A stretch of DNA of 64,000 bases, from positions 14,925-78,924 of the forward strand of contig JAIQFY010000011.1 of the NCBI GenBank assembly GCA_020072965.1, written 5' to 3'. A model generated the notes under the pieces. The model searched no databases. It was not told where the DNA came from and was given only the letters and a program-made list of their open reading frames with translations. Made by a program: the position numbers and the translations under genes. The DNA comes from Terriglobia bacterium (GTDB lineage: Bacteria; Acidobacteriota; Terriglobia; JAIQFV01). Of this stretch, positions 33,354 to 52,068 are shown piece by piece. Each line of letters opens with the position of its first letter. The first letter of the stretch is position 1.

Positions 33354-33820
33354 TGTGAGAGAACCCAGCCCGTTGGATTTTGGCCTCAAAAACACTTGAT
33401 CAGTTCAGCCGTAATCATCACGGGTCTGACAGCCCAGTTTGCCGAAAGATCCTCCCCCTCGGGAGATCGATTCTGGCTCGATTCACACGAGGCCTCTTCC
33501 CCGCTCCACTTATTGCAGCGTATCCGGGACGATAGTAGTACACTTTTCAATTTGAGCCTTCATTTTTTAATTGCGCAACTGCAACTTGCCCAACCGATGG
33601 CCTTCCTTTAGTTTAGTGGTGGAGTCCAAGCACCCGGATTGTTGTATTCGCAACCCTTGACCTCTCCGTTTCCCCTTCCCTGATAGGTCATAAATTCGGA
33701 CGAAACACAAGGCGGCACAGACCAAAGAAGACTTAAATTTCTGACCTTTACGCTCCATTTCCAATTTCCCAAAGCGACCACTCCGGCAACATTTTATCAG
33801 CAACGCAACCGTTGCATGCA

Positions 33821-33832
33821 ACACGGGCCGAA
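33821..33832. promoter_or_regulatory. Perfect 12-bp palindrome GTTGCATGCAAC (candidate enhancer/operator site)
   Basis: Intergenic. The same core recurs at 51935-51946, and a 17-nt variant CTGTTGCACTGCAACAG at 45481-45497. Each is followed by a sigma54-like element. Confidence 0.4.
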
Positions 33833-33929
33833 GGGCCGGGCAAGGCGATGAAGGCTTCATTTTCAAAGGAATGCCCAACAAAACCAATATCTTGTGAAGT
33901 TTTTCACTCGATAAAGGTTTCTGCGTTCT

Positions 33930-33945
33930 TGGCATCCTTCATGCA
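33930..33945 (+). promoter_or_regulatory. Candidate sigma54 (-24/-12) promoter TGGCATCCTTCATGCA
   Basis: GG and GC dinucleotides spaced exactly 12 nt. Lies about 100 bp upstream of the GNAT/por operon and 109 bp downstream of the palindrome. Confidence 0.4.
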
Positions 33946-34042
33946 GTAATTCATTCGGAATGAAGGGCAAAAGCATGTTGTGTGAAACCTCTCTTACTGC
34001 CAACAGGGACGCCTGGTCCAGGGGAAAGTGTGAGACAGGTGG

Positions 34043-34651
34043 GTGGAAAGTGGCAGGGGAAGGAGGGCTGCAATGCCGACCCTGACTCATGATGCACCCC
34101 CAATCGCATTTCGTGACCCGAAAAGGGCTGCTGAACATGAACCAACGAATTGGTCACGAGCGTTCATTGACAAGAAAGGAGCGCGAGCGACAGCAAGGTC
34201 GTTCCGCCCCCAGGACTTAAAGGCATTGCAGGAGATGTACTTTCAGTTCGAACCCAAACAAATCGCGCAACGGATTCCTCCCCGCACTGAAGAGCAAATC
34301 AGTCGCTGGTTACGCTGTCTGACCCATGACGGCGAGAATATTGTGGCGTTGATCGGACGCCGGCTGGTGGGGCACGCGGTGTTATGCGATTTGCAGGATG
34401 GTCGGGCTGAGCTTGCCATCTTTGTTCACCAGGATTTTCGAAATCGCGAAATTGGCACTCAATTGATCCAGTTGGCCAAGCGGGCAGCCATGGCGGCCGC
34501 CTACCGCCAGATCTGGATTTCCGTGGAGTCGTCCAATCTGCAAGCAATTCACGTCTTCCAGAAGAACAGTTTTCAATTCCTCGGAAGTTTCGATACCGAA
34601 AGTGAAATGGTCCTCGATCTCAGCCCTACGGGAAGGCAAATCGATAAATGA
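34043..34651 (+). CDS. GNAT family N-acetyltransferase
   Basis: HQDFRNREIGTQLIQLA acetyl-CoA motif. Stop overlaps the porGD start (ATGA). Confidence 0.7.
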   Translation: MESGRGRRAAMPTLTHDAPPIAFRDPKRAAEHEPTNWSRAFIDKKGARATARSFRPQDLKALQEMYFQFEPKQIAQRIPPRTEEQISRWLRCLTHDGENIVALIGRRLVGHAVLCDLQDGRAELAIFVHQDFRNREIGTQLIQLAKRAAMAAAYRQIWISVESSNLQAIHVFQKNSFQFLGSFDTESEMVLDLSPTGRQIDK

Positions 34652-35601
34652 CCACATTCAATACGAACGTTCAACTCCCATTTCAAGATGATCTGGGATT
34701 CTGCAATGTCCTGATGTCAGCGATTGGCGGGGACGGCGCCAACATGGCAGCCAAGCTGCTTTTCAAGGTGTGTGTGACGTATCTGGATCTCGACGGCGCC
34801 TATGATGCGAAATACGGCAGCGAGAAAAAGGGAACGCCCACGGATGTTTCTCTTCGGTTCTGCAAATTCGGAACCTCTGTCCGGGAGAGCGGTCCGACCA
34901 ATCGTCCGCACATTCTCTGTATTTTTCGCGATGCCCTGATCCGGCCTCTGGCACTCAACCGCGGCCTGCAGAAGAATGCATTGGTGATTGCCAACACCCG
35001 GCGCTCACCGGAGGAGATCCGAGATGACTTACGGCTCCACAGCGGGACCATCTGCTGTCTGGATGCCACACGGATCGCCTTGGAAACCAATTCGCGATTG
35101 AATATACCCATCCTGGTGCTGCTCGCAAAATTCCTGCAGATCCCGATGGAAACGCTGCGCAAGGTGGTGGGAGAGACCTGGCCCCGGGCGTCCACAGCAA
35201 ATCTCCAAGCCTTCGATCGTGCCCTGGGGTCCTTTGCGCAAAAGCGGTTTGAGGCTGACGGGAAGTACCCGCTCGTCCCCCCGGCTGAGCCTCGGGGGCG
35301 TATCGGCTACATGAACATGAACGAGGGAGGAGCCATCAATGCCACGACGCACCTAAATCTTTCGTCATCCATGCCCAGCGCCAGCATCAATCCCCTCCCG
35401 GATTTTCATGCTGAGATCTGCACTCATTGTGGGCTTTGCATGTTGGCCTGCTCTGACCCGGGAGCGATCGTCTGGGATGACAAGAAGATGATTGCCATCG
35501 ACGCCGTGTACTGCAAAGGGTGCATGCGCTGTGTTGAAGCATGTCCAGACACGAAGAAAGGGAAGGCCCTGACCGCCCCGGCCGAACTGGCCGTTGCCTG
35601 A
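34648..35601 (+). CDS. porGD: 2-oxoacid:ferredoxin oxidoreductase gamma-delta fusion (PorG + 2x[4Fe-4S] ferredoxin PorD)
   Basis: SAIGGDGANMAAKLL is a gamma-subunit GGQG-like motif. C-terminal CTHCGLCMLAC and CKGCMRCVEACP ferredoxin motifs. Confidence 0.8.
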   Translation: MTTFNTNVQLPFQDDLGFCNVLMSAIGGDGANMAAKLLFKVCVTYLDLDGAYDAKYGSEKKGTPTDVSLRFCKFGTSVRESGPTNRPHILCIFRDALIRPLALNRGLQKNALVIANTRRSPEEIRDDLRLHSGTICCLDATRIALETNSRLNIPILVLLAKFLQIPMETLRKVVGETWPRASTANLQAFDRALGSFAQKRFEADGKYPLVPPAEPRGRIGYMNMNEGGAINATTHLNLSSSMPSASINPLPDFHAEICTHCGLCMLACSDPGAIVWDDKKMIAIDAVYCKGCMRCVEACPDTKKGKALTAPAELAVA

Positions 35602-35704
35602 AGCTGGAGTTCCCGCGAGGACGCTTTGCAGCCCCTCAGCATAAAATGAGGCTTGCAAACACTGAGAAAGAAACGAAATCATCCGCACTCCCTAGGAACC
35701 GATC

Positions 35705-37957
35705 ATGCCCTTGGATACCTTGATTGAAAAGACTGAACTGAAGAAAGCCGTTGCGGCAGCAACCCAGGTCACATTTATCGGAAGTGGTAACGAGGTTGCC
35801 GCGAAGGCCATCCTCGACATCGGGTACGACGGAGAAGGTTACTATCCGATCACTCCCTCGTGCGAAGTGGGAGAGATGGTCAGCCGGGCCATTGCCAATG
35901 GAGAGGCCGACATGTCGTTCGTGGTGGGGACGAGCGAGCTTGCCGCTATTTCAGTCGTTACGGGAATGGCGATTGCGGGCGGGCGCGCCGTCGACGTCAC
36001 CTCGTCGCAAGGGCTGATGCTGAAGGCTGAAGAGATGCCGGCTATCAGCGGTCTCGGTCTGCCGGTGGTCTTGAACCTGGCTACCCGCGACATCAATGCC
36101 CCGCTCAACATCAAAAATGGACACAGTGATCTGATGGCTACGCTCGGCTGGGGGTGGCTCACCTTTTGCGCTCCCACTGTCCAGGCGGTTTATGATCTGA
36201 ACGTCATCGCCATCAAGGTGGCCGAAACCGTCAACCTGCCTGCTATCGTGGCCTACGACGGTTTCCACACCAGCCATGCCAATCGCCGCATTCTCGTGTT
36301 TGCCCGGCGGGAGGATGTGCGTCGATTTGTTGGGCCTACACCTCCCCGCCTCAACCTTCTCGACCTCGAGCATCCCCATACCTTCGGCCCGTACATGAAT
36401 GATGATTTGATCAACACAAAGGTGCAACTTGACGAGAAATTCAAAAGGGCTTACGACCTCATTCCTGAGGTCTTCGAGGCGTTTTTTCAGCTCACTGGCC
36501 GCCGCTACAATTTTGTCGAAGTCTATGGAGATCCGGATGCCGAAGCAGGCCTTTTCATTTTGAATTCAGCCGGCGAGGCCTCGAAGGCGTCGGTTGACAG
36601 AATGCGCGCAGAAAATAAGCGGGTTAAAGCGATTATTCCGACTGTCCTGCGCCCCTGGCCCGAGGATGAAATGCGCGAAGCGATCGGCGACACACCGCGC
36701 CTCGTCGTGGCGGAGAGGGCCTCTCAGTATGGCGCCGGGAACTATCTAGCCAATGAACTGGGGGCGACTTTACAACGTGCGGGGAAAACGAATCTGCTCA
36801 TCAGTCGAACCTACGGAATCGGGGGGCTTAACTTCCGTCCCGAGGATGGGGTCGAACTGCTGAACCTTGCCTGGCATTATCCCAGTATCACTGAAGATGA
36901 GCGGAAACTGCGGGGCTATTATGGAGCTTGGCCGGGTGAGCCCGGTTACGATCCGCCGGAGATCTTTACTCCCCTCACCGCCGCAGAAACTACCCTGAAT
37001 GCGAACCAAGCCAAGATTGACTTCAAACACCTTTCCCAAATGCCCTCCCGGATTGCCAAGCATTCCGCTTGTCCGGGATGCGGGATGTTTGCCAACCTGA
37101 ATCTGTTCATGCGTGGCATTGACGGAAATGTGGTTTTCCTGTTCAACACCGGCTGCGGTATGGTCGTGACCACCGGATTCCCCAACACCAGCTTCAAGAC
37201 CCCGTATTTCCATAACCTTTTTCACAATGGGGCATCGACCGCCACCGGTGTAGTCGAAATGTATCGCCGCTTCCGTGCCCAGGGAAGAATCAAAGACGAA
37301 ATCACCTTCATTGTCGTCTCGGGCGATGGCGGCGACGACATTGGAATGGACCAGGTGATCGGATCAGCTCTACGCAATGACCCGTTTATCATGCTGGAAT
37401 ATGACAACAAAGGTTACATGAATACGGGGGGACAACTCTGTTACACTGGTTTCAAGGGCGAGAGGTTCACGAACGCGCCGCTGGGAAAAATGGGCCAGGG
37501 TAAGCAGCAGCACAGCAAAGACATTATCGAAATCCTGCGAGGCACTAATTCCCCTTACCTGTTCACCGCGGCCGAATCCAATCCCCGCGATATGATTGCA
37601 AAGGCCCGCAAGGCCCAGGCCATGGTTCGCGCCGGGAACTTTGCCTTTGGGAAGGTATTTTCCGTGTGCCCTCTCAATTGGGGCGCGGAAGACTCGAAGG
37701 GCAATGAGATTGTTGATCGAGCAGTCAAGAGTTGTTTGTTTCCTCTCTACGAGATCGAGAACGGTATCACGCATCTGAATTACGATCCTCAGGCCTCGGG
37801 ACGCAAGATCTCCGTTCAAGCCGCCTTTGAATTGATGGGAACGGCATTTTCTCATTTGACCAAGGAACAATTCGCCGGCTTGACGCGGGAGATCCAAGAC
37901 GAAACGGACAGGCGTTGGGACCGTCTGAAAGAACTCGCCACCAATCCCAAATTGTGA
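35705..37957 (+). CDS. porAB: 2-oxoacid (pyruvate-type):ferredoxin oxidoreductase alpha-beta fusion, TPP-binding
   Basis: Alpha domain followed by a beta domain with CPGCG and the GDGGDDIGMDQ TPP-Mg motif. Length 750 aa. Confidence 0.85.
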   Translation: MPLDTLIEKTELKKAVAAATQVTFIGSGNEVAAKAILDIGYDGEGYYPITPSCEVGEMVSRAIANGEADMSFVVGTSELAAISVVTGMAIAGGRAVDVTSSQGLMLKAEEMPAISGLGLPVVLNLATRDINAPLNIKNGHSDLMATLGWGWLTFCAPTVQAVYDLNVIAIKVAETVNLPAIVAYDGFHTSHANRRILVFARREDVRRFVGPTPPRLNLLDLEHPHTFGPYMNDDLINTKVQLDEKFKRAYDLIPEVFEAFFQLTGRRYNFVEVYGDPDAEAGLFILNSAGEASKASVDRMRAENKRVKAIIPTVLRPWPEDEMREAIGDTPRLVVAERASQYGAGNYLANELGATLQRAGKTNLLISRTYGIGGLNFRPEDGVELLNLAWHYPSITEDERKLRGYYGAWPGEPGYDPPEIFTPLTAAETTLNANQAKIDFKHLSQMPSRIAKHSACPGCGMFANLNLFMRGIDGNVVFLFNTGCGMVVTTGFPNTSFKTPYFHNLFHNGASTATGVVEMYRRFRAQGRIKDEITFIVVSGDGGDDIGMDQVIGSALRNDPFIMLEYDNKGYMNTGGQLCYTGFKGERFTNAPLGKMGQGKQQHSKDIIEILRGTNSPYLFTAAESNPRDMIAKARKAQAMVRAGNFAFGKVFSVCPLNWGAEDSKGNEIVDRAVKSCLFPLYEIENGITHLNYDPQASGRKISVQAAFELMGTAFSHLTKEQFAGLTREIQDETDRRWDRLKELATNPKL

Positions 37958-38224
37958 TCCATTTGAATGGCAAATCAATGGACCGGCGATGTCGAAGCAT
38001 GGCCCTCGAAGCCGCATGCACCCTCCGGGGATCCCTGGAGGATCTGGCTGCGAGGGACAAGAGGTTTAAGATCTCGGGGATAGGGGCGGGGTAAGCAGCA
38101 GGATGCAGGATGAAACGGGTGTTTCGGCCGAATCGTGGATATCGACCCACGACCGGCTTAACTGGGTCGCCACTTCCCTCTGCGCGCTCAAATGCAGAAG
38201 GATTCTAAGAAAGAGGGTTCAACA

Positions 38225-38686
38225 ATGGAGGATTCTCTCACTATGAAACTCACCGTAGATCTCGCAGGGGATAACGGGTTCCGGATCAAGTCCGCCAACC
38301 ATGTATTTGTGTGTGACCATGCGGCTGAAACACCGGGTCCTCACGCCACTCTCACCCCGGTCCAGTTGTTGATCGCTTCTCTGGGAGCGAGCATCTCCAA
38401 CTCAGCTGTGGAGTTCTGCAAGGAGCATTCCCTGCCGGTGGCGGGACTGAAGACGATCCTGGAATGGGATTTTGCGGGGGACCGAAACCGCATTGGCAGG
38501 ATCGACGTCTCGGTGCACTTGCCCAATGCCGTCCCTGGCAGTCTTGCGGACGACTTCATGAGCGCCATCCACCAGTGCACGGTCTATCAGACCTTGCAGC
38601 TCAAACCGGAAATGCATTTTCACACCACCCTCGATGTGGAAAAGCCGGAAGGCGAAACACTGATTCATTTCGCAGGGGCGGAGTAA
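38225..38686 (+). CDS. OsmC/Ohr family peroxiredoxin-like protein
   Basis: PGPHATLTPVQLLIASLGASIS and the second conserved Cys region (HQCTVYQT) match the OsmC fold. Confidence 0.75.
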   Translation: MEDSLTMKLTVDLAGDNGFRIKSANHVFVCDHAAETPGPHATLTPVQLLIASLGASISNSAVEFCKEHSLPVAGLKTILEWDFAGDRNRIGRIDVSVHLPNAVPGSLADDFMSAIHQCTVYQTLQLKPEMHFHTTLDVEKPEGETLIHFAGAE

Positions 38687-38726
38687 GCGGAATCTCAGAT
38701 CGCTGCTCAAGAGGAGTTTTTTACTC

Positions 38727-39578
38727 ATGCATGTTATCGTTGGCAGAAAACAACTGGCGCCCGACGTGGTGCAGACCGAAGTCGAGGCTCCCCTGGTCGC
38801 CCGAAAGCGCAAGGCGGGGCAATTCGTCATGATCCGCATTAGCGAGGAGGGAGAACGCATTCCTTTGACGATTGCAGACTCCGATCCCGTTCGGGGAACG
38901 ATCACCCTTATTGTGCAGGCGGTCGGAAAGTCCACCAAGCAACTGAACCAGTTGCAACCGGGCGATACCCTCGTGGACGTGGTGGGGCCGCTCGGGAAGC
39001 CGACCCACATCGAACCCAATGCTAATGTTGTGTGTATTGGCGGCGGAATCGGCGCGGCGGTGGTCTATCCCATCCTCAAAGCCTATAAGGATTCTTCCAG
39101 CCATGTGACTTCGATCATTGGTGCACGGACCAAGGATTTGTTGATCCTGGAGCAGGAAATTCGTGCCCGGTCCGAACAGACTATCGTCACCACCGATGAT
39201 GGCAGCTACGGGATGCATGGATTTGTAACGGATGCATTGAAGAAGCTCATGAACAATGGAAAACCCATTGATCTCGTCATCGCGATCGGGCCGGTCCCGA
39301 TGATGCGCGCGGTGTGCCGGGTAACCCAAGAGGCCAAGATCAAGACAATCGTCAGCCTCAACCCGATTATGGTGGATGGAACAGGGATGTGCGGGGGATG
39401 CCGGGTGATGGTGGGCGGAAAGATGCAGTTCGTTTGTGTCGACGGTCCCGAATTCGAGGGGCATGAAGTAGATTTTGATGAGCTGACCGCACGGCTCAAG
39501 AGTTACGTGGAGTTTGAAAAGGAAGCTCAGGCAAGGTATGAAAATATCTGTGGCGTCCATTGCGGCTTGGAGTCGTGA
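38727..39578 (+). CDS. nfnA: NfnA/SudB-like FAD + [2Fe-2S] subunit (ferredoxin-NADP reductase PyrK-like)
   Basis: FVMIRISEEGERIPLTIA FAD-binding barrel, GGGIGAAVVYP, and C-terminal CGGCRV cluster motif. Confidence 0.8.
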   Translation: MHVIVGRKQLAPDVVQTEVEAPLVARKRKAGQFVMIRISEEGERIPLTIADSDPVRGTITLIVQAVGKSTKQLNQLQPGDTLVDVVGPLGKPTHIEPNANVVCIGGGIGAAVVYPILKAYKDSSSHVTSIIGARTKDLLILEQEIRARSEQTIVTTDDGSYGMHGFVTDALKKLMNNGKPIDLVIAIGPVPMMRAVCRVTQEAKIKTIVSLNPIMVDGTGMCGGCRVMVGGKMQFVCVDGPEFEGHEVDFDELTARLKSYVEFEKEAQARYENICGVHCGLES

Positions 39579-39637
39579 AAGCCGTGCTGTTCGCCACGGA
39601 TTCGAATCAAAAATTCTTCTGAGTTCAGTAAAGAATA

Positions 39638-41094
39638 TGGCAAAGAAAATTGGCGCGAAGACAAAAACCCCGATGATGTGTCAGGATCCCCAGGTGCGGG
39701 CTCACAATTTCAATGAGGTGGCGCTGGGCTACAGGGAGGAAGAGGCGGTATTTGAGGCCAATCGGTGCATTGAGTGCAAGAACATGCCCTGCATCGCGGG
39801 TTGTCCGGTCGAAATTGATATCCCCTCCTTCGTCAAGGCGATCGCCGAACGACGGTTCGAAGACGCCACCCGCATCTTGAAGTCAAGGAACTCGCTGCCC
39901 GCCATCTGCGGACGTGTCTGCCCGCAGGAAGAGCAGTGCGAGCTGAAGTGCACCCTGGGTGCCCGTTTCGAGCCGGTCGCGATCGGCCGACTTGAGCGCT
40001 TCGTCGCCGACTGGGCGAGGGCTCACATGGCGGAAGAGATCCCGACTAAGCGACCTTCCAATGGAAAGAAGGTCGCTGTGGTGGGTTCAGGACCCGCCGG
40101 GCTGACCTTGGCGGGAGATTTGGTGCAACTGGGCTACCAGGTCACCATTTTCGAGGCGCTGCACAAGGCGGGAGGAGTTCTCGTTTACGGAATCCCGGAA
40201 TTTCGTCTTCCCAAGAACATCGTGCAACAGGAGATCGACTACCTCATCAAGATGGGCGTGGAGCTGAAGACCAGCGTCGTCATTGGAAAATCCCTGACGT
40301 TGACAGAGTTGATGACCGAATTAGGATTCGATGCCGTGTTCATTGGGACAGGTGCGGGCCTGCCTTCCTTCATGAAGATTCCGGGCATCAATTTGATTGG
40401 CGTGTACTCTGCCAATGAGTATCTCACGCGTTCCAATTTGATGAAAGCCTATCGATTCCCTGAATATGACACTCCCGTCATCCGGGGCCGCAATGTGGCA
40501 GTGGTGGGAGGTGGCAATACCGCGATGGACTCCATCCGGACCGCCTTGCGCCTGGGCGCAGAAAACGCCTATCTGGTGTATCGCCGCTCCCGGGCTGAAA
40601 TGCCTGCCCGCAAAGAGGAGGTGGAGCACGCGGAAGAGGAGGGCGTCCAATTCCACATGCTCACCAATCCGGTCGAGATCCTGGGCAATGAGAAGGTTCG
40701 CGTCCGGAGCATGCGGGTGCAGAAGATGGAGCTCGGCGATCCCGATGAATCCGGGCGCCGCAAGCCGATCCCCATCCCCGGCTCTGAATTCGAATTGAAC
40801 GTCGATACCGTCGTTATGGCGGTGGGCCAGGGGGCGAATCCCGTCCTCACTTCCACTGCGCCGGATTTGAAAACAAATAAGTGGGGAAACATCGTTGCCG
40901 ATCCCGAGACCGGGGCAACGAACATCCCCGGTGTGTTTGCGGGAGGAGACATCGTCAGTGGCGGCGCGACCGTCATTCTGGCGATGGGAGCGGGGCGGAA
41001 AGCGGCTCGGGCCATTGACCAATACCTCCGGGAACTGAACCTGAATGCTACGCCGCAGCCGCAGGAGGCGGAAGAAAGTACAGTTCCAAACTGA
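39638..41094 (+). CDS. nfnB: NfnB / GltD-like NADPH-dependent oxidoreductase (glutamate synthase small-chain family)
   Basis: CIECKNMPCIAGCP and CGRVCPQEEQC Fe-S motifs. VAVVGSGPAGL and VAVVGGGNTAMD are dinucleotide-binding motifs. Confidence 0.8.
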
Positions 41095-41262
41095 GGTACC
41101 CATATCGTGCGGTTGAGTTCGAAAGGCCGCGATCCAACGAGGCAGGAATACTTGAATGCAACCCACACATGAATTGGCCCGTCCTTATGAACCTGATCGC
41201 GGGGAACTCAGACGTGGACTGGACTCAGTGGGCATTCAGCGGAGCAGGGAGGCTGGAAGAAA

Positions 41263-41652
41263 ATGTCAGTGATTGTGAATCATCGCGAAAAATACTCCTT
41301 CGAGGCCCACACCCGGAATCATCTGATCCTGAGTGATCAGCCGACTTCCTCTGGAGGCGGAGACTCGGCCATGACTCCGAATGAGCTATTCGTCTCCTCC
41401 TTGGGATTGAGCATGGCAGTCTATATCCAGCACTTCTTCCGGGCACGGAACCTGCCCGGCGATCGCTTTTCGCTCCACCTCGATTGGGAGCAGGAAGAGA
41501 ATCCAACCCGGATTTCCAAGGTGAGTGCCTGCATTCACCTCCCCCCGGAAGTGCCCGAACGTTATCGAGAAGGCCTGCGTCACGCCGCGGAATCCTGTCC
41601 CCTCGAACATACCTTGCGGGCTGCGCTCAAGATTGAGGTCCAAATCGGATAG
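41263..41652 (+). CDS. OsmC-like family protein
   Basis: MTPNELFVSSLGLSMAVYI and a C-terminal Cys (AESCPLEHT). Second OsmC paralog in the locus. Confidence 0.6.
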   Translation: MSVIVNHREKYSFEAHTRNHLILSDQPTSSGGGDSAMTPNELFVSSLGLSMAVYIQHFFRARNLPGDRFSLHLDWEQEENPTRISKVSACIHLPPEVPERYREGLRHAAESCPLEHTLRAALKIEVQIG

Positions 41653-43537: not shown

Positions 43538-44839
43538 ATGCGCCTAGACGTCACACTTAACAATTTCCGCAACCAGCGGGTCATCATCCATGCCAAGCAT
43601 GATTCCATCTCTATTTGTCTGAATCATTTCAACAACAGCCTCAACTTCGACCGTGAAGGGCGGATCATCTCCGTTTTTCTGAATGGCCATACATTCCAAC
43701 GCAGCGAAGACAATCGGTACCTGGTCAAATGGAAGACCGACAAGTTGGGTTCCCCCCTCACGATGCGCAGGTCACTCGAACCGAAGGAAATCCAGGAGTT
43801 TTTCACCAACGCGCGAGAGACAGTTCGTGAGGTCCTCGAGGCATTACAACTGCAGAAAATGAAAGCTCTTATCGAGCAGCATATCCCGGTCAGTGAGGCT
43901 AAAGCGGTACAGGAGTGGATGCAGCGGATCCTCACTTACACCCTGGATCGGTACGCCGAGCGAGCCAGGGAATTTCTTCAAATCTATAAACCCATCAGTA
44001 TCCTGCCGCCAGACCAGTACCGCTCACTGGTGGTCCAGGGGACCGAAGGATGCCACTATAACCAGTGCAGCTTTTGCACTTTCTACAAGGACCGCGAGTT
44101 CCGAATTAAAACGCCAGCGGAGTTCCGAAAACATCTCAAGGACATTCGGAAGTATTACGGCGAATCCCTCCGCCTGCGCCGAACTATCTTTCTCGGTGAC
44201 GCCAACGCCATCGTGACGCCCCAGAAAACCCTCCTGAAGTTTCTCGACGCCATCAATGAGGAGTTCGATATCACCCCGCCCGGGATGGAGAAAGAAGATC
44301 GCACCCTTTGGAAGAAGGCTCATCCCATCCACTTCAACGGGATCGTGTCCTTCATGGATTGCTTCACCTCCAAGCAAAAAACCGTTGATGAGTTCAAGGA
44401 GATGGCAGCTCGAAATCTCAAACGAGTTTATATAGGCGTTGAGACGGGAAGTGATCCGCTCCTGGCCTTCCTTAACAAACCCGGCCGGAGTGAAGAGATT
44501 TGCGAAGCCGTGGACCATGTCAAGAAAGCTGATCTGTCCGTGGGCCTGATTATCATGGTGGGGATTGGAGGAATGAAATTCAATGCGGAGCATATCGAAA
44601 AAACGGTCAAGCTGTTGCGCTCGCTCCCGCTTAGCGAGCACGACCTGATTTACTTTTCGGAGTTTGTCCAGCTCCCGGAAATGCCCTATACGCATAAAGC
44701 CCTGGAAGAGCGAATCCGCCCCCTTTCACCCACACAGATCAAAACCCAAATGACCTTAATGCGCCAACAACTCCGAGCCACCTATCCCGTCCCTCCTGCG
44801 AAGCTCTCGGTCTACGACGTCAGGGATTTCATGTACTGA
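43538..44839 (+). CDS. Radical SAM-like protein with non-canonical CX4CX2C cluster motif
   Basis: GCHYNQCSFCTF; downstream VYIGVETGSDPLL...VGLIIMVGIGG resembles the radical-SAM TIM-barrel. N-terminal approx. 160 aa unassigned. Confidence 0.55.
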   Translation: MRLDVTLNNFRNQRVIIHAKHDSISICLNHFNNSLNFDREGRIISVFLNGHTFQRSEDNRYLVKWKTDKLGSPLTMRRSLEPKEIQEFFTNARETVREVLEALQLQKMKALIEQHIPVSEAKAVQEWMQRILTYTLDRYAERAREFLQIYKPISILPPDQYRSLVVQGTEGCHYNQCSFCTFYKDREFRIKTPAEFRKHLKDIRKYYGESLRLRRTIFLGDANAIVTPQKTLLKFLDAINEEFDITPPGMEKEDRTLWKKAHPIHFNGIVSFMDCFTSKQKTVDEFKEMAARNLKRVYIGVETGSDPLLAFLNKPGRSEEICEAVDHVKKADLSVGLIIMVGIGGMKFNAEHIEKTVKLLRSLPLSEHDLIYFSEFVQLPEMPYTHKALEERIRPLSPTQIKTQMTLMRQQLRATYPVPPAKLSVYDVRDFMY

Positions 44840-45480
44840 TCCGGCCCCCTCTCTCGGTTCCCTCGCGGCTTCAGGTCGTAGATCCAGTCTTTTCTCTCCT
44901 CATGCCTTGTCCCCCTTGCAGGGATTTATTCTTACCCTCGAATTAGTTCCGAGAGAAGGGATTGGCCCCTTTTTGACATGAAGTCTCCGTCTTCTGATTC
45001 AACTTACTGAGAGTTTGCTGAAAATTCCATTTAATTCGACTTTCCAGGAGGAGTCCTCTCTCGACTCATAGGATATGTCCGTCTAGATAGCCAGATCACA
45101 GACAACCTGGCCCATACTCCCCTCCCCCGAGACGCCCGAAGCCCGGTATCCGCATGCTCTCAATGTCTGGGGGATTGAGTTACTCTCACCAATTCCACAG
45201 GTCGCTGTCCGGCTACGAGTAGAAGACGGTGCCTTCCACGGACTCTGCTGCCCCTGGTGCTGCAGCCAGGATCGAGACCTCCAAGAGCAAACCCGGACTC
45301 TTCCTTCCTTTGATTGCCCTTTTGGAACCATCGTGAACTAAATGATCTGAAATAAAAAGTCCGATATTTCCCTGCTAGAGGGCCAAAAAGTCCTTTAAAT
45401 CTCCTCAGCTGGATCGATATCCTGACGTCCCACACAGCCAATTTTCCATCCTCCTTTTGCAACCCTCCGATGAAACATTC

Positions 45481-45497
45481 TGTTGCACTGCAACAGT
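45481..45497. promoter_or_regulatory. 17-nt palindrome CTGTTGCACTGCAACAG (candidate enhancer-binding site)
   Basis: In the 1-kb AT-rich leader upstream of the cytochrome operon, 190 bp upstream of a sigma54-like element. Confidence 0.4.
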
Positions 45498-45670
45498 GGC
45501 ATTCCTCAGCGCCTGGAACAAGAGTTTTAAATTTCATCTAATCTGCTGATTCTAAATACTATGCTAATACAGCCTTTTCTTTGAACTCCAGACTTCATTG
45601 GCGTACGAATTGCTAATCCTATATGTGAATTTTTGCACTAAGATTCACCATTGCCAGCAGTTCGGCGCAA

Positions 45671-45686
45671 TGGCACCCGGAATGCT
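45671..45686 (+). promoter_or_regulatory. Candidate sigma54 (-24/-12) promoter TGGCACCCGGAATGCT
   Basis: Strong -24 TGGCAC. GC of the -12 box lies 12 nt after GG. About 185 bp upstream of the decaheme cytochrome start. Confidence 0.45.
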
Positions 45687-45871
45687 GATGAATCAAACAT
45701 TGAATCTGGGATGTAGCCGCAAATGATTAATGACAACTCCGGTCTAAATTGGATAGAATCTGCCCTTGCTTCCTGCTCGCCTCTTTTAAGGTCAATCACT
45801 CTCGTTGCCATTCCTGGAAACAATTTGCTTCTTTGAGCACACCACCTAGTATGAACTACAAGGAGATTACT

Positions 45872-46873
45872 ATGACCTCATTCACGGGCCCGCTGAAGGC
45901 GATCAAGATGACGCTCATCAGCGGCTTAGTGCTTGTGGGACTTGTGGGCGCCTTTTCCCTTTCCTTCTCGAAGTCGGCCAAGCCCGACAAGGGAAAGACT
46001 CCGCAAGCCACGTCGGCGAATTACAAGGCGGAGGACTATGTTGGGGCTGACACCTGCAAGACCTGCCACGAAGAGATTTACAACAATTTCCAAAAGACGG
46101 GCCACTTCAAACTGACGCGATATGGCAACTGGACGGCCGACAACAAAGGCTGCGAAGCCTGTCACGGACCGGGCAAGGCCCACGTGGATGGAGGCGGTGA
46201 TAAGACCAAGATTCATACGTTCGAGGATCAATCAGCCAAACAGATATCTGAAACGTGTCTCCGTTGCCATGCCGGAAAAGAGGAACACAACAATTTCCGA
46301 CGGGGTGAACACTGGCGGAACGATGTGAGCTGTATCAACTGTCATGCGCCCCATTCGCCAACGGCCACAGATCTTAAAATGTTGGTCCAGAAGGAACCGA
46401 TGCTCTGCATCTCCTGCCACAGCGAGATCAAAGCGCAGTTCAATATGCCTTTCCGTCACAAGGTGATGGAAAACACCACGAAGGGCAACGTGCTGGAAGG
46501 CACCATGAAGTGTACTGATTGCCATAATCCTCATGGCGGGTTTGAACAGAAGCAGGTGAGGCTGGCAACGGGAGGAGATGCCCCCTGCATGAAGTGTCAC
46601 GCCGACAAACAGGGACCCTTTGTATTCGAGCATGCGCCGTTGAGGGAGGAGGGTTGCACGATTTGCCATATCCCGCACGGGTCGAATAATCCAAAACTGC
46701 TGAAGCGCAATGAAGTCCGGATACTCTGCCTGGAATGCCACAGCAATGCGGGCACCGTGGGAGCGCCTGATACTCCGTCGTTCCATAACCAGGCAACAGC
46801 GCGATTCCAGAACTGCACGACCTGCCATGTCAAGATTCACGGCTCGAATCTCGATCGATTCTACTTCCGTTGA
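45872..46873 (+). CDS. Decaheme c-type cytochrome, MtrA/PioA/MtoA-like periplasmic conduit cytochrome
   Basis: 10 CXXCH motifs (CKTCH, CEACH, CLRCH, CINCH, CISCH, CTDCH, CMKCH, CTICH, CLECH, CTTCH). 333 aa. Signal/TM at N-terminus. RBS AAGGAG 7 nt upstream. Confidence 0.8.
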   Translation: MTSFTGPLKAIKMTLISGLVLVGLVGAFSLSFSKSAKPDKGKTPQATSANYKAEDYVGADTCKTCHEEIYNNFQKTGHFKLTRYGNWTADNKGCEACHGPGKAHVDGGGDKTKIHTFEDQSAKQISETCLRCHAGKEEHNNFRRGEHWRNDVSCINCHAPHSPTATDLKMLVQKEPMLCISCHSEIKAQFNMPFRHKVMENTTKGNVLEGTMKCTDCHNPHGGFEQKQVRLATGGDAPCMKCHADKQGPFVFEHAPLREEGCTICHIPHGSNNPKLLKRNEVRILCLECHSNAGTVGAPDTPSFHNQATARFQNCTTCHVKIHGSNLDRFYFR

Positions 46874-46922
46874 CGTGTGAGGGGCCTACACCGCTAACGA
46901 TATTTTTGGAGAAACGCACATC

Positions 46923-48932
46923 ATGAAAAATAAAATCGGATTCACGCTTTTGATCGTGCTGGGGATCGCGATGGGGGCATTGGTGGTCCGTGCACAGTCC
47001 ACTCCCCCCTCCAGCGATACGGTCCTGGGGGGTTATACCGTGACCCAGGATGCCGAGTTGGGGGTGCGGTTTTTGGGCCGAGACGGGAATGAGAATAAAT
47101 ACCGCAGCGATCTGAATTACGGCCGGGGCTTCCGGCTCTTCAACTATGATTTCCTGGCGCGATCGAAGGACGGCCACGGAGGCTTTTTTGATCTATTCCG
47201 TGTGACGGCGCTCGGCTGGGGTGGGGATCCCAACGAGTTTCTGCGCGTGGATGTCGAGAAGAACAAGTGGTACCGTTTTGATGCCACTTTCCGCCAGTTT
47301 GATTATTTCAACAACCTCACCAATCTGGCGCTGAACCAGCACCTCGCCGATAACAGTCGCAAATTCGACGATTTCAATTTGGCGCTCTTCCCTGACAATC
47401 AGCACTTCAAGTTTTACGTCGGTTACACGTTTGACAAGAGCAGTGGGAATGCGACCACGACGTACGATTACCAGCGCGATGAGTTCCCCATCCAGTCTAA
47501 AGTCCGGTCCGTGGCCAATGACTGGCGGGTCGGCTTTGATGCCAAGGTGTGGGTGTTTGACCTTTCCTTTCTCCAGGGATACCGCATTTTTAAGGACGAT
47601 ACTACTTACGTGGTTCCCTCTCTTAATGTGGGAAATAACCCGACGAATACCAGCGTCATTAATTTCTTAACGCGGGATGTGCCGTCGCGCACCCACATGC
47701 CCTTTACCCGTTTCAGTGCCCACACGCTGATCAAGAAGAAGCTGGACTTTACCGGTCGGTTCATTTACTCAACTGGGACCACCACCTATAATTTCGCAGA
47801 GGCCGTGAAGGGGGTCGATGCCTCCAACAACAACATTCTCCTGGATCTTTTCAATGGACCCGGGAGCGCCCGGCGGCCTAACGGCATTGGTGATTTGGGG
47901 GCGAGTTTCTTTGCCACCGACCGTTTGACCATCTCGGAGACCTTCCGAGTAAACACTTTCCGCATTTCGGGCGGGTCGAACGTCTTCGAATCGTTGTTCC
48001 GCACTCGCACGACGGCATTTGGAACAACTACGCTTCCTCCGACTTTCATTTCCTCCCTGATCTTCGAACTGGTCGGATATCGTTTGTTCTCCAATTACAT
48101 TGAGGGGGACTACAAGTTCAGTCCAAAATTCTCCGGACATGTCGGTTATCGATATACGTCGCGGCGGGTGGAGTTGGGTACCTCGATTCAACCGCCTTTG
48201 GGAACGGCGCTCGATACCGACACCCAGTTCAACCACACCAACTCGGTGGTGGTGGGGTTCAAAGCACGCCCCGCTTCCATCTGGACCGTCTATTTTGACT
48301 TTGAGCGTGGCACGGCGGACAACGTGTTCACGCGGCTCTCCAATTACAACTACACCAACTTCCGCGTGCGCACCAGTGTCAAGCCGACAAAGACCCTGAC
48401 ATTTAACGCTTCCCTGGTGACCCGCGACAACAACAACCCCGCCCTCACCCAGGGGGGTCAGAACTTCGGTGTTGATGCCAAGGGGCGGATCTTTAGCGCG
48501 TCAGCGGATTTCAGCCCCAACTCGAAATTTACTTTCACAAGCGGCTATACCTATAACCGCCTTACCTCCGATTCCTCTATCATCTTTTTCCTCGGGGGCA
48601 TCCAGACCACAGGAACCAGCTTGTATTTCCTGAGGGACCATTACTTCTTTTTCAATTCCCACGTCCAGCTCCATCCTCGAGTGGGCCTTTTCTTCGGCTA
48701 TCGCATCGAGAAGGACACCGGCCAGGGAGACCAGGTTGCGAGTTCGCCGAGCCAGTTGATTTCGTCCTATCCGTTGCAGTTCCACTCACCCGAGGTTCGG
48801 TTGACTTTCAAACTGCTTGAGCATCTGGATTGGAATGCCGGGTTCCAGCGGTATGATTACAAGGAGAAATTCCTGAACAACCAAAACTACCGAGCGAATT
48901 TGCCTTACACTTCGCTTCGGCTCTACTTCTGA
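46923..48932 (+). CDS. Outer-membrane beta-barrel protein, MtrB/PioB-like porin partner
   Basis: Signal peptide. 669 aa, rich in alternating aromatic/Gly/Thr/Asn. C-terminal ...SLRLYF. Translationally adjacent to the decaheme gene. Confidence 0.65.
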   Translation: MKNKIGFTLLIVLGIAMGALVVRAQSTPPSSDTVLGGYTVTQDAELGVRFLGRDGNENKYRSDLNYGRGFRLFNYDFLARSKDGHGGFFDLFRVTALGWGGDPNEFLRVDVEKNKWYRFDATFRQFDYFNNLTNLALNQHLADNSRKFDDFNLALFPDNQHFKFYVGYTFDKSSGNATTTYDYQRDEFPIQSKVRSVANDWRVGFDAKVWVFDLSFLQGYRIFKDDTTYVVPSLNVGNNPTNTSVINFLTRDVPSRTHMPFTRFSAHTLIKKKLDFTGRFIYSTGTTTYNFAEAVKGVDASNNNILLDLFNGPGSARRPNGIGDLGASFFATDRLTISETFRVNTFRISGGSNVFESLFRTRTTAFGTTTLPPTFISSLIFELVGYRLFSNYIEGDYKFSPKFSGHVGYRYTSRRVELGTSIQPPLGTALDTDTQFNHTNSVVVGFKARPASIWTVYFDFERGTADNVFTRLSNYNYTNFRVRTSVKPTKTLTFNASLVTRDNNNPALTQGGQNFGVDAKGRIFSASADFSPNSKFTFTSGYTYNRLTSDSSIIFFLGGIQTTGTSLYFLRDHYFFFNSHVQLHPRVGLFFGYRIEKDTGQGDQVASSPSQLISSYPLQFHSPEVRLTFKLLEHLDWNAGFQRYDYKEKFLNNQNYRANLPYTSLRLYF

Positions 48933-49234
48933 GCGATGCCAATTACGCTCGAGGTAAAACCATTGGACCAAGAAGGATTATTCTTATCGATAAACTCTAG
49001 ATGTCGCGCCTGCAACGATCCGTGATACGGACGCGGACACATCGACTTCGGAAGCTGATCGTCCGATATTTTAAACAGCCACTCCTGCAGGGGGCTGCAC
49101 CTTAAGTCAAGGAGGTAGAAAACCATGGCCATGGCAGATTATGACAATGACCCCTAACCTATAGGTTGCCGATTTTTTTCGTCTACATTTGTGAAAGCAT
49201 TCACATGACGTTAACGTCAGAAAGGATCATTTTT

Positions 49235-50194
49235 ATGGTAAAGAAGCTCATATTAGCATTTACGTTCTTACTTGTTCTTGCAAGCCTATCTTTGGCCGCC
49301 AATCCCACTCCGGCACCGCTCAATGTCCCGACCTACAACTATTCGGAGTCGAATGGCTGTCCGAGTTGTCACTTCTCGTCGGGAACGGCAGGCGATCACA
49401 TGATGGAAGCGGTCGGCATGAGTATCGACAAGGGCAACACTGCTTTCACGCTCTCTGGCAGTGGCTGGCGTGCATCCCGGCATGCTCAATCCAACCATGG
49501 GTCCACGCAAAATACCTTCTGTGCAAAATGCCACTCTCCTCTTCAAGCCACACCTCAAGCGACCTTTAACAATGGGTTCCTGGAGAACACGGCGTTGATC
49601 GCTGATGGCCAAATGGAAGGTGTCACCTGTGCGGGGTGCCATCCGCCCCACGCCACCGTTCCTCGCCTTGGGATTTACCATTTCGGTCAGGACAAGACCA
49701 AGGCATCATCGTACACATTGATTCAGGAAGATGAGCAGGACCTGCTTTGCCTCAACTGCCACGTCAACCGACACAACGAGACCAACACTGCCTTTAAGCG
49801 GATGTACGACGCCGGCGTGCAGTGCACGGATTGCCACATGGCTCGCTATGGATTGACCAACAATGGTCAGGGTACAGTCCAAAAGCGCTTCCATGATTTC
49901 AAGGTGGCAGAGAATCTACCGTATTCCTGCGGTGTCGACGGGGCGGTTTCTGGATTCCGGTGCCATCCCGGCTTCAGCACAGAAGCAACTCTCGCCTTCC
50001 TGCCCTTCCTGAAGGAGCAGCACAGCGATTGGTGGCCTCTGACTCAGAGTGCCGGCAAGAGAGGCAATGCGACGGCTACTAGGACCCTGGCAACACCGGC
50101 CGATTATATGGACCTCTGGAAAGAGATCCAGAACGGGACTACCCGGGTGCAGAGCGAAGCGAAACGAGTGGATCGAACTCAAGCTGCCCAGTAA
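49235..50194 (+). CDS. Secreted pentaheme c-type cytochrome
   Basis: Sec signal MVKKLILAFTFLLVLASLSLA. 5 CXXCH motifs (CPSCH, CAKCH, CAGCH, CLNCH, CTDCH). RBS AAAGGA. Confidence 0.8.
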   Translation: MVKKLILAFTFLLVLASLSLAANPTPAPLNVPTYNYSESNGCPSCHFSSGTAGDHMMEAVGMSIDKGNTAFTLSGSGWRASRHAQSNHGSTQNTFCAKCHSPLQATPQATFNNGFLENTALIADGQMEGVTCAGCHPPHATVPRLGIYHFGQDKTKASSYTLIQEDEQDLLCLNCHVNRHNETNTAFKRMYDAGVQCTDCHMARYGLTNNGQGTVQKRFHDFKVAENLPYSCGVDGAVSGFRCHPGFSTEATLAFLPFLKEQHSDWWPLTQSAGKRGNATATRTLATPADYMDLWKEIQNGTTRVQSEAKRVDRTQAAQ

Positions 50195-50238
50195 ACTTTT
50201 GATTCGCTTGACGGTAGCATTCTGAATTCTATTTGTCT

Positions 50239-50299
50239 GGGCCGCGTGGAAATTGAGGGAAGGCGACCCTTCATCATTTCTTTTGCGGCCCTTTTTTAT
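50239..50299 (+). terminator. Rho-independent terminator-like hairpin GGGCCGC...GCGGCCC followed by TTTTTT
   Basis: Outer 7-bp stem plus inner GAAGG-CGAC-CCTTC stem, then a T-run. 45 bp after the pentaheme gene stop. Confidence 0.5.
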
Positions 50300-50372
50300 T
50301 GCAAAAATGTGAATTTATTCACAAGTAAGTCGTGCCATTGATTTCAAACTCAATCATAGGAGGTAGTACTAA

Positions 50373-51161
50373 ATGGACTCATCAAATAGAAGACGTTTTG
50401 TTAAGAACGTGGGTGGAATCGCGATCGGTGCAGTCGCTGGGTCCGGGGTTACCCGGCTCCTTTCTTCGGACGAAGCGCCACTTGCGATTCCGGCTTTGCC
50501 TTGGCCTTATGTGGATTTGGATCCGATTGCAGTAGCCGAGAGAGCGTACCTGGGTTATTCCAACGGTGGGTGCATGTACGGGGCATTCGAGGGAATTATC
50601 GGGGAGTTACGTACCAAGCTGGGAGCACCATTCGATACCTTTCCTACCACCATGATGAAATACGGTGGCGGGGGGGTCGCCGGTTGGGGCAGTCTCTGTG
50701 GAGCGTTGAATGGCGTCGCGGCAGCCATTTATCTTTTGAAGGATTCAAAAACCGGAAATGATCTGATCAGTGAAATCTTTAACTGGTACGGAGTAGAAAA
50801 GCTCCCAAATTACCGACCAAAAACCCCGAAGTTTGAAATTGCAACCACTATTTCGGAGTCCCAGTTGTGTCATGTGTCTGTCACCAAGTGGGCTAATCAC
50901 ACGGGTTTCAAAACGGGCTCTCCCGAGCGCGCTGAAAGATGTGCGTGGCTCACTGCTTCTGTCGCCAAGTACACCACAGAATTGCTGAACAAGCAGCTCG
51001 CCGGGACTTACCAGCGGGCGCACCAAACCCCCGCGAAGGTTACTCTGTGTTTGCAGTGCCATGGACCCAGCGGCACGGTAGCCAATGTCCATATTACCGG
51101 GGGTCAAAGTAACTGCACCTCGTGTCATCATCGACACTGGGCTGGAGGAGTCGAGTTCTGA
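50373..51161 (+). CDS. C_GCAxxG_C_C family redox protein with C-terminal diheme c domain (split-Soret cytochrome-like), Tat signal
   Basis: SNRRRFVKNVG twin-arginine leader. Cys pattern C...CGALNG...C...C. CLQCH and CTSCH at the C-terminus. RBS AGGAGG. Confidence 0.65.
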   Translation: MDSSNRRRFVKNVGGIAIGAVAGSGVTRLLSSDEAPLAIPALPWPYVDLDPIAVAERAYLGYSNGGCMYGAFEGIIGELRTKLGAPFDTFPTTMMKYGGGGVAGWGSLCGALNGVAAAIYLLKDSKTGNDLISEIFNWYGVEKLPNYRPKTPKFEIATTISESQLCHVSVTKWANHTGFKTGSPERAERCAWLTASVAKYTTELLNKQLAGTYQRAHQTPAKVTLCLQCHGPSGTVANVHITGGQSNCTSCHHRHWAGGVEF

Positions 51162-51287
51162 TTCTTCACATGGGTCAGGAAGGATTAAAGAAGGGCGAAG
51201 GATCCCGAACACACTCATAGCAGTAGGGCGGATCCCCTACCTTCTCCCCGATCCTGGCCCGAAACCTCCGGCTTGATCTTCAGGGAT

Positions 51288-51348
51288 GGGCCGCGTTCGA
51301 ATTTGATGGAAGTTACATTCTATCGATTCGATCCGGCCCCTTTTTTCT
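51288..51348 (+). terminator. Terminator-like hairpin GGGCCGC...CGGCCCC followed by TTTTTT
   Basis: Same GGGCCGC/GCGGCCC-Tn architecture as at 50239 and 51831. Confidence 0.45.
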
Positions 51349-51409
51349 CTTCGAATGGTTCTGAATATCGCGCCATGTCAATTGAGGGGTCGCCAACGTA
51401 GTGCCTCTG

Positions 51410-51786
51410 TTGAATCCGTCGATTGCCACATGGCTCCGTATGGACTGACCAACAACGGCCAGGGAACGGTGCGGAAGCGCTTCCATGATTTCAAGGTGGC
51501 CCAGAATCTTCCCTATTCGTGCGGGGTGGATGGGTCTGTGAATGGATTTGTTTGCCACGCGGGATTCAACACAGAATCGGCTCTCGCCTTCCTTCCCTAC
51601 ATGAAGGAGCAGCACAGCGACTGGTGACCGGTAAACTCAAGCACCGGCAAGAGGGCCGCGAGCACAGCCGTGGGTGCGCTGCAGACTCCAGAAGATTACA
51701 TGGCACTCTGGAAGCGAATCCAAGATCGAGGCGGACAACTCCCGCTTAAGCACAAGCAAGTTGACCGGAAAGCGATTCATCTCTAG
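51410..51786 (+). pseudogene. Degenerate 3' fragment of a paralog of the pentaheme cytochrome gene (in-frame TGG TGA stop, first heme Cys lost)
   Basis: SVDCHMAPYGLTNNGQGTVRKRFHDFKVAQNLPYSCGVDGSVNGFVCHAGF...KEQHSDW* aligns with 49835-50194 of the intact gene at about 80% nt identity. TGGTGG has become TGGTGA. Homology continues after the stop and through the terminator. Confidence 0.7.
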
Positions 51787-51830
51787 CAATCATACATAAT
51801 CTACGCACGACATTGGATTTAACCACTTTA

Positions 51831-51888
51831 GGGCCGCATCGGGATGGTAGGCAGGCAAACTGCCGACATCCCCTTGCGGCCCTTTTAC
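51831..51888 (+). terminator. Terminator-like hairpin GGGCCGC..(GGCAG-GCAAA-CTGCC)..GCGGCCC followed by TTTT
   Basis: Duplicated together with the gene fragment. Paralogous to the 50239 terminator. Confidence 0.45.
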
Positions 51889-51934
51889 ATTCAGTCTTAC
51901 CCTCAATCTGCAACGCGCCGCATGTAACAAATCC

Positions 51935-51946
51935 GTTGCATGCAAC
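51935..51946. promoter_or_regulatory. Perfect palindrome GTTGCATGCAAC (second copy)
   Basis: The 14-mer CCGTTGCATGCAAC is identical to the one at 33819-33832. Lies 118 bp upstream of a sigma54-like element. Confidence 0.4.
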
Positions 51947-52052
51947 CGATCATTAAAACTCTAAGAGTACCCAAAATGGGACGAATTGTCCTGATCTTAT
52001 ACAGTCAATGGGACTTAAATTCCAGGTGGACAAATGAATCTTTTCACATGAA

Positions 52053-52068
52053 TGGCAGGGGAAGTGCC
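52053..52068 (+). promoter_or_regulatory. Candidate sigma54 (-24/-12) promoter TGGCAGGGGAAGTGCC
   Basis: GG to GC spacing is 12 nt. About 175 bp upstream of resB. Confidence 0.35.

Follow-up and report, generated by a model that had tools for sequence, protein, structure and literature searches.

A candidate sigma-54 regulon with a shared enhancer palindrome upstream of pyruvate oxidation, porin-cytochrome and cytochrome maturation genes in a Terriglobia bacterium

The sigma-54 RNA polymerase holoenzyme forms a closed complex at −24/−12 promoter elements and cannot open the DNA alone. An activator hexamer that sits on an upstream enhancer, and is delivered by DNA looping, remodels this complex using ATP. 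In Geobacter sulfurreducens, the regulator BccR (GSU0598), which has receiver, sigma-54 and helix-turn-helix (HTH) domains, is required for the sigma-54-dependent induction of cbcBA, a pair of genes encoding a b-type cytochrome and a multihaem c-type cytochrome (bioRxiv 10.1101/2021.04.15.440034). In Desulfovibrio vulgaris, a computational, comparative reconstruction (Kazakov et al. 2015, PMC4641369) put operons for pyruvate formate-lyase and the octahaem cytochrome Ohc under the control of enhancer-binding proteins and sigma-54, with a typical distance of about 100 nt between enhancer and promoter. Here we analyze a 64,000-nt stretch of contig JAIQFY010000011.1 from a Terriglobia bacterium of the phylum Acidobacteriota (assembly GCA_020072965.1); this whole stretch is hereafter called the window, and its first nucleotide is position 1. 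We focus on three intergenic regions, which lie upstream of an operon for pyruvate/2-oxoacid oxidation (site 1), an operon for a porin and multihaem cytochromes (site 2), and a string of genes that begins with resB and ccsA (site 3). From their sequence and its conservation, we consider it probable that all three act as enhancer-dependent sigma-54 promoters with one upstream activating sequence (UAS) and one activator in common.

The element that links the three regions is the palindrome GTTGCA(N0-1)TGCAAC. It occurs three times in the window, each time between genes, as claimed in an earlier interpretation made from the letters of the window (the sequence-only reading), which had placed it upstream of these same three operons. 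The exact form, GTTGCATGCAAC, is found at 33811-33822 (site 1) and 51935-51946 (site 3). At up to one mismatch there are two matches in the window against 0.16 expected, and none of 100 shuffles gave two. The sequence-only reading had put the site-1 copy at 33821-33832, which is 10 nt too high, and had correctly noted a 14-mer, CCGTTGCATGCAAC, common to sites 1 and 3 (at 33809 and 51933). At site 2 the palindrome, GTTGCAcTGCAAC (45482-45494), has one extra central base; the 17-mer described there, CTGTTGCACTGCAACAG, is present, but starts at 45480 rather than 45481. Upstream of each palindrome are two more conserved GNAAC half-sites, oriented like the right arm: a distal GCAAC about 25 nt, and a medial G(C/T/A)AAC about 11 nt, 5' of the palindrome start. 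The resulting candidate enhancers, all on the plus strand, span 33785-33822 (enhancer 1: GGCAAC at 33785-33790, medial GCAACGCAAC at 33800-33809, and the palindrome), 45458-45494 (enhancer 2: TGCAAC at 45458-45463, TGAAAC at 45471-45476, and the palindrome) and 51909-51946 (enhancer 3: TGCAAC at 51909-51914, TGTAAC at 51923-51928, and the palindrome). A literature search for the TGCAAC dyad as a known enhancer gave no matching motif. The site-2 palindrome was flagged by a terminator scan as a minus-strand hairpin. We rejected this interpretation because the stem at sites 1 and 3 is only 4 bp, there is no T-run, and there is no minus-strand gene that needs a terminator.

Each palindrome is followed by a sigma-54-like element. 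The pattern TGGCA-N7-TGC is present at 33930, 45671 and 52053, exactly where the sequence-only reading had placed it and with the 12-nt offset from GG to GC that it had given; each copy is upstream of, and co-oriented with, its operon. By itself this pattern is not enriched (5 in the window against 2.75 expected; 17 of 100 shuffles reach 5). The two other matches lack an upstream palindrome; one is intergenic, on the minus strand at 9939, and one lies within a gene at 34745. The −24/−12 register (GG at −24 and GC at −12; TGGCAC-N5-TTGC) was found at 33930, 45599, 45671 and 52053. We then scanned both strands of the window (128 kb) with an approximate sigma-54 weight matrix, derived from the published consensus with our own frequencies, whose scores serve for ranking only. 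The top scores belonged to 45671 (14.2), 33930 (14.0), a coding match at 8816, 45599 (13.2) and 55634 (12.7). Hence 45671, 33930 and 45599 are among the four best matches, and all three are intergenic and co-oriented with their operons. Predicted promoter 1 (TGGCATCCTTCATGCA, 33930-33945, plus strand, second-best score) has its predicted start at about 33955, leaving a leader of about 118 nt to the ATG of a GNAT gene at 34073. Predicted promoter 3 (TGGCAGGGGAAGTGCC, 52053-52068, plus strand) has its predicted start at about 52078, with about 180 nt of leader before the conserved ATG of resB at 52258. Site 2 has two candidates, 45599 and 45671.

To assess conservation, we collected the orthologous regions of some eight related lineages of Terriglobia. 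The closest public genomes are metagenome-assembled genomes (MAGs) of that class, and contigs identical to the window's were found in two metagenome assemblies. The porin of site 2 is about 87% identical to the window's in loci L003, L004 and L116/L117/L122, and 64-68% identical in L118/L121, L119 and L120; in L046, L123 and L124 the gamma subunit of the pyruvate/2-oxoacid:ferredoxin oxidoreductase (POR) is 80-83% identical. The whole region from POR through the porin and resB to a kinase gene is syntenic in L116, L118 and L119, and the synteny of operon 1 is kept in L116, L118, L119 and L121-L124. We aligned six lineages at site 1, five at site 2 and four at site 3. Mean column identity was 71% at site 3 and 53% at the other two sites, with only 15-33% of columns invariant. 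Within these alignments, none of the 12 palindrome-arm positions varies at any site. Of the 7 positions of the TGG(C)/TGC cores, all are invariant at sites 1 and 3 and 6 at site 2, where the miss is an alignment gap. In the spacer between the cores, only 2-4 of 8 positions are invariant. Also invariant are the half-site GGCAAC, GCAACGCA and TTGGCA-Y-NNN-TCATGC in the six lineages of site 1; TGCAACC and TGAAACA, together with both palindrome arms, in the five of site 2; and enhancer 3 with the TGGCAGG-N5-TGC of promoter 3 in the four of site 3. At the centre of the site-2 palindrome, the five lineages carry C, T, A, A or G, which fits a spacer that is not contacted. Among the loci fetched, 14 related ones carry the palindrome, always at the orthologous positions, and the other 115 lack it. 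Beyond the motifs, the longest stretches common to the three regions are 10-12 nt.

The alignments also distinguish the two candidates at site 2. The element at 45671 (TGGCACCCGGAATGCT, 45671-45686, plus strand), which the sequence-only reading had chosen as the promoter, has the best matrix score in the window but fails the conservation test: it is kept in L004 and L116 and absent in L118-L120, with 1 of 7 core positions invariant. It sits in a stretch of about 130-200 nt (in the leader of the decaheme cytochrome gene, window 45640-45840) that has no counterpart in the lineages with a 64-68% identical porin, whose leader is about 130 nt shorter. The conserved element, missed earlier, is TTGGCGTACGAATTGCT at 45599-45614, where TGG-N8-TTGC is present in 5 of 5 lineages. 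We take it as promoter 2 (TGGCGTACGAATTGCT, plus strand, score 13.2, fourth in the window), with a predicted start at about 45624. The 45671 element may be a second, lineage-specific sigma-54 promoter, with a possible start near 45696.

With 45599 rather than 45671 as the site-2 element, the distance from palindrome start to TGG becomes uniform: 119 nt at site 1, 117 nt at site 2 and 118 nt at site 3, instead of the 110-190 bp of the sequence-only reading. Across lineages it is 116-119 nt in 18 of 18 palindrome instances (14 unique), despite the divergence of the interval. The dyad centre lies 111-114.5 nt before GG in the same 18 of 18, at about −137 from the predicted start. The −24/−12 elements of the three promoters fit a common form, TGG-N8-(T/A)TGC, about 113 nt past that centre. 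Given the frequency of TGG-N9-TGC in the window (3.75e-4 per position), the chance of finding it on the same strand within 200 nt downstream of all three palindromes is about 4e-4, and the chance of finding it in the observed 4-position slot at all three is about 3e-9. These values bear out the earlier judgement that the triple co-occurrence is the real signal. Between enhancer and promoter, the sequence is AT-rich at all three sites, with a GC content of 37-47% compared with 55% in the whole window.

Neither an open reading frame (ORF) with a sigma-54-interaction domain nor rpoN is present in the window. We extended the contig past the window end using L125, which is 100% identical to window 52521-64000, and found there a gene for an NtrC-class activator, the kind of regulator that the sequence-only reading had proposed to look for. 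The gene lies 2.7 kb beyond the window, in the same contig and orientation (L125 14209-15636, equivalent to window 66729-68156). The protein has 475 aa, with the domains Response_reg, Sigma54_activat, AAA_lid_14 and HTH_8, and carries GAFTGA at residue 223, a Walker A motif and the receiver aspartate. It aligns end to end with the AtoC, NtrC and ZraR models and with the NtrC1/NtrC4 structures, which are its best matches in NCBIfam and the PDB, but scores below the equivalog cut-offs (AtoC, 471 against 714 bits; NtrC, 449 against 559), and is therefore no ortholog of any named regulator. Its gene is the last of the string that starts at site 3, after four multihaem/b-type cytochrome genes downstream of the kinase gene, and is the only such gene in about 84 kb of this genome. 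The kinase (dCache-HisKA-HATPase, 58850-60700) is encoded among the cytochrome genes and has an AtoS/ZraS-like transmitter. No rpoN was found in the roughly 20 kb of flanks read; its presence in the genome is implied only indirectly, by the intact GAFTGA activator on the contig. Based on linkage, the neighbouring 475-aa regulator is most likely the activator that binds the palindrome.

The palindromes and sigma-54 promoters could instead be served by an activator encoded elsewhere, with the string-3 regulator controlling something else. The distribution of homologs would suit this: clear orthologs of the 475-aa regulator are 84-97% identical, no homolog was found between 59% and 84%, and those at or below 59% have an HTH recognition helix different from its own, SKTIHRR, while the lineages with a 64-68% identical porin keep the identical palindrome. 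Many NtrC-family paralogs are common in acidobacterial genomes, and 7554 matches below 1e-80 were scored. We nonetheless regard an outside activator as unlikely, since about 84 kb contain no other activator gene, and since the string-3 regulator gene closes one of the target strings, reads in its direction and shares it with a kinase gene; autoregulated two-component activators encoded with their targets are a common pattern, as with BccR by cbcBA. We considered one 58% homolog, P0251, as a possible ortholog from a distant lineage, and rejected it: its locus is unrelated and lacks the palindrome, and its recognition helix differs. This combination is consistent with, though weak support for, a pairing of activator and dyad.

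The step from orthologs at 84% identity to homologs at 59% or less with another recognition helix, set beside a palindrome kept in the lineages with a 64-68% identical porin, weighs against the neighbouring regulator as the shared activator, and other features of the locus weigh against the shared-promoter interpretation more broadly. Promoter 3 is weak in this genome, with a score of 10.4 and rank 19 in the window; its ortholog in L118, TGGCAGGTCGCATGCT, scores 14.2. The half-site spacing at site 2 differs by 1 nt from that at sites 1 and 3, which is odd for a rigid dimer. Matches to an IHF-like site in the spacers are weak (one mismatch at 33882 and at 45539) and lacking at site 3. Finally, string 3 may be interrupted at 55596-55830, where a gap of 236 nt separates its genes; it is thus not assured that the kinase and activator genes are read from promoter 3 and so autoregulated.

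An ordinary, non-AAA+ factor could also use the palindrome as its operator at sigma-70 promoters, with TGG-N9-TGC kept for another reason. A spacerless 12-bp perfect dyad is indeed typical of many HTH repressors, and the Rex-type boxes described below point to other factors acting here. A sigma-70 consensus scan gave a match at 45730-45759 (ATGACA-18-TAGAAT), inside the clade-specific stretch of site 2, and nothing at sites 1 and 3. Moreover, the dyad, about 137 nt 5' of the predicted start and separated from the start codons by 260 to 390 nt, is too distant for such an operator, and TGG/TGC with a free 8-9 nt spacer in the sigma-54 register, at a fixed 116-119 nt, is the pattern of an enhancer-dependent promoter. 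An ordinary operator thus seems improbable to us. Even less credible is a functionless co-occurrence, by chance or duplicated intergenic ancestry: a sequence of 64 kb should contain exact 14-mer repeats by chance, and TGGCA-N7-TGC is not enriched, but the regions share nothing beyond 10-12 nt outside the motifs, the motifs are invariant where the flanks have diverged to 53% identity, and the joint probability is only 4e-4 to 3e-9. We therefore favour enhancer-dependent −24/−12 promoters under one co-regulating activator, as the sequence-only reading had proposed; conservation, the fixed 116-119 nt distance, the lack of sigma-70 matches at sites 1 and 3, and the linked activator and kinase all support it.

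The genes downstream, identified by Pfam matches and gene calls, agree with the earlier assignments (GNAT and POR, decaheme cytochrome and 669-aa porin-like protein, ResB-CcsA). Operon 1 starts on the plus strand at 34073-37957 with a GNAT gene (34073-34651) and the gamma-delta (34648-35601) and alpha-beta (35705-37957) genes of the 2-oxoacid:ferredoxin oxidoreductase, and continues on the same strand with OsmC, an NfnAB-like pair, a further OsmC, glutamate dehydrogenase and a radical SAM gene. Operon 2 (45872-50194, plus strand) encodes a decaheme cytochrome (45872-46873), the 669-aa porin-like protein (46923-48932) and a multihaem cytochrome (49235-50194). The decaheme cytochrome belongs to the DmsE/MtrA family (TIGR03508, 252.5 bits against a cut-off of 192.2), and the family of the porin-like protein is widespread in Acidobacteriota. 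String 3 (52258-64000, plus strand) comprises resB, ccsA, a small membrane ORF, a cation efflux gene, a cytochrome b/multihaem fusion, the kinase gene, and alternating multihaem and b-type cytochrome genes, and runs past the window end. ORFs that overlap the sites, at 33567-33935 (minus), 45160-45537 (minus) and 51940-52218 (plus), were rejected as genes because they have no Pfam match, were not called as genes and show no in-frame conservation. No RNA family was detected when the entire window was scanned against Rfam.

We propose that an NtrC-class activator would bind the dyad and its flanking half-sites, loop across the AT-rich spacer, and open the promoter through ATP hydrolysis. The dCache kinase would sense an external ligand and phosphorylate the 475-aa regulator, and all three promoters would then fire together on one external signal. 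Ferredoxin-linked oxidation of pyruvate or other 2-oxoacids, with Nfn-type redox balancing, would be induced together with an MtrA-type porin-cytochrome conduit, cytochrome c maturation, CbcBA-like cytochromes, and the two-component genes themselves, the last giving positive feedback.

A second class of inverted repeats is found at these sites. The operator consensus of the redox regulator Rex is TTGTGAA-N4-TTCACAA, an 18-bp inverted repeat (PMC2883068). At up to two mismatches, the window holds three matches (49189, 50307 and 33892) against 0.20 expected. The box at site 1 (TTGTGAAGTTTTTCACTC, 33892-33909, two mismatches) is centred about 54 nt 5' of the predicted start, between enhancer and promoter; it is intact in 4 of 6 lineages, and the changes are confined to its spacer. 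At site 2, a weak box (ATGTGAATTTTTGCACTA, 45623-45640, three mismatches) overlaps the predicted start of promoter 2 and is kept in L004, L116 and L120, not in L118 and L119. At site 3, a degenerate box (AAATGAATCTTTTCACAT, 52032-52049, four mismatches, two in L118) abuts the −24 element. The two best boxes, with one mismatch each, are TTGTGAAAGCATTCACAT (49189-49206) and ATGTGAATTTATTCACAA (50307-50324), which precede the coding sequences starting at 49235 (a cytochrome gene) and 50373 (a C_GCAxxG gene) by 29-66 nt. Orthologous boxes precede the post-porin cytochrome paralogs in L004, L116 and L118-L120 by about 40-66 nt, and by up to about 225 nt in L118; they are found at 12269, 13546 and 14916 in L116, 12228 in L118, 12241 in L119 and 12233 in L120. 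No Rex or CRP/FNR-family gene is present in the window, and the box core, TGTGA-N6-TCACA, also fits CRP/FNR-family sites. The boxes are probably a second, redox-linked input, which would add repression or gating tied to the redox state. More tentatively, the locus may be a self-contained switch for extracellular electron transfer. The kinase and activator would drive the three promoters, coupling carbon oxidation at the ferredoxin level to the outer-membrane conduit, cytochrome maturation and quinol-oxidising cytochromes, and Rex-type operators, placed on the start site or in the interval from enhancer to promoter, would make transcription depend on NADH/NAD+; we hold this to be possible, with the odds against it. 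To our knowledge, such a two-input design of enhancer and Rex-type operator is undescribed for sigma-54 promoters.

Several other sequences near the sites deserve mention. A fourth promoter candidate at 55634 (GGGCACGTGTTATGCA, score 12.7), 5' of the cation efflux gene, was rejected as a conserved member because it has no palindrome and no plus-strand counterpart in L004 or L116, and because in L118 the flanking genes are only 40 nt apart. The same sequence (55634-55660) overlaps a weak Rex-type box, TTATGCAAAGAATCACAA (55643), and has no counterpart in L004, L116 or L118. A block, TTAAATT(T/C)C, common to all three regions was set aside as it is not conserved at site 2. The 12-mer TGGCAGGGGAAG, shared by the ribosome-binding region of the GNAT gene (34051-34062) and promoter 3 (52053-52064), is probably a chance match, since it is not conserved at site 1 in relatives. 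About 80 nt 5' of enhancer 1, the block CTTAAATTTCTGACCTTTAC (33732-33751) is conserved in 5 of 6 lineages and may belong to the divergent HAD-hydrolase gene. A strong sigma-54-like match, CTCTGGCACCTTAGATGCAGGG (score 14.4), lies just outside the window at L127 11171, about 17 nt short of position 1. It is on the minus strand of the window and separates rtcB from a PEGA-domain gene, in an orientation that opposes both.

The surroundings of site 3 hold further small features. Upstream, a remnant of a multihaem cytochrome paralog (51355-51627) is followed by a terminator-like hairpin with a T-run (51830-51883). Over 78 aa, the remnant matches residues 197-274 of a 327-aa protein of L116 at 82% identity; in its place relatives have two or three tandem cytochrome paralogs, without the C_GCAxxG gene. 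Between enhancer 3 and promoter 3, a dyad, GGGACGAATTGTCC, and a block, GGGACTTAAATTCC (51978-51991 and 52010-52023), are conserved in 4 of 4 aligned lineages, including L118, and may be a site for an architectural or additional factor. A five-codon mini-ORF, ATGGAGAAAGATGCTTAG (52079-52096), starts at the predicted start of promoter 3. It is kept in L003, L004 and L116, with a GTG start and the same stop, and not in L118; it could be a leaderless leader peptide or merely conserved leader sequence. Farther downstream, 3' of ccsA, a 34-aa hydrophobic ORF (55491-55595) has a good ribosome-binding site and no family. It was called as a gene in L125, and relatives carry ORFs of 68-69 aa at its place.

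Acidobacteria are abundant in soils and peat and mostly uncultured, and many have porin-cytochrome clusters. The enhancer motif, the three promoter positions and the candidate kinase/activator pair together define a testable regulon, whose extent could be delimited by searching MAGs for the motif. If real, this regulon would tie pyruvate oxidation to an electron conduit and to cytochrome maturation; the dCache domain points to an external ligand that should be identifiable, and the promoters could act as reporters of iron or humic respiration in Acidobacteriota. If true, the two-input switch would give this phylum its first defined regulatory circuit for extracellular electron transfer.

Compared with the systems introduced above, the locus most resembles BccR-cbcBA in gene types, with a regulator beside pairs of b-type and multihaem cytochromes; this likeness is one of domain composition only. 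It differs in belonging to Acidobacteriota, in the position of the regulator (at the end of the string, whereas BccR is divergent) and in the presence of a dCache kinase. The proposed regulon also extends to pyruvate:ferredoxin oxidoreductase, an MtrA-type porin conduit and resB-ccsA. The regulator has the same order of receiver, GAFTGA AAA+ and Fis-type HTH domains as the NtrC/AtoC/ZraR class. The locus also shares with that class (for example, NtrC at glnAp2) a dyad enhancer with extra sites about 110-140 nt upstream of −24/−12, and an AtoS/ZraS-like kinase, whereas its targets are redox and respiratory genes rather than genes for nitrogen or acetoacetate. The regulons of Desulfovibrio vulgaris were inferred by the same logic, from conserved −24/−12 elements and upstream palindromes near a regulator gene; the organism, motif and operon set differ here. 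Rex operators likewise stand 5' of redox, fermentation and respiratory genes, and their siting beside sigma-54 promoters in this locus departs from the classic Rex arrangement. Sigma-54 acting with an enhancer-binding protein is a textbook mechanism; the novelty lies in the phylum, the enhancer sequence and the set of operons.

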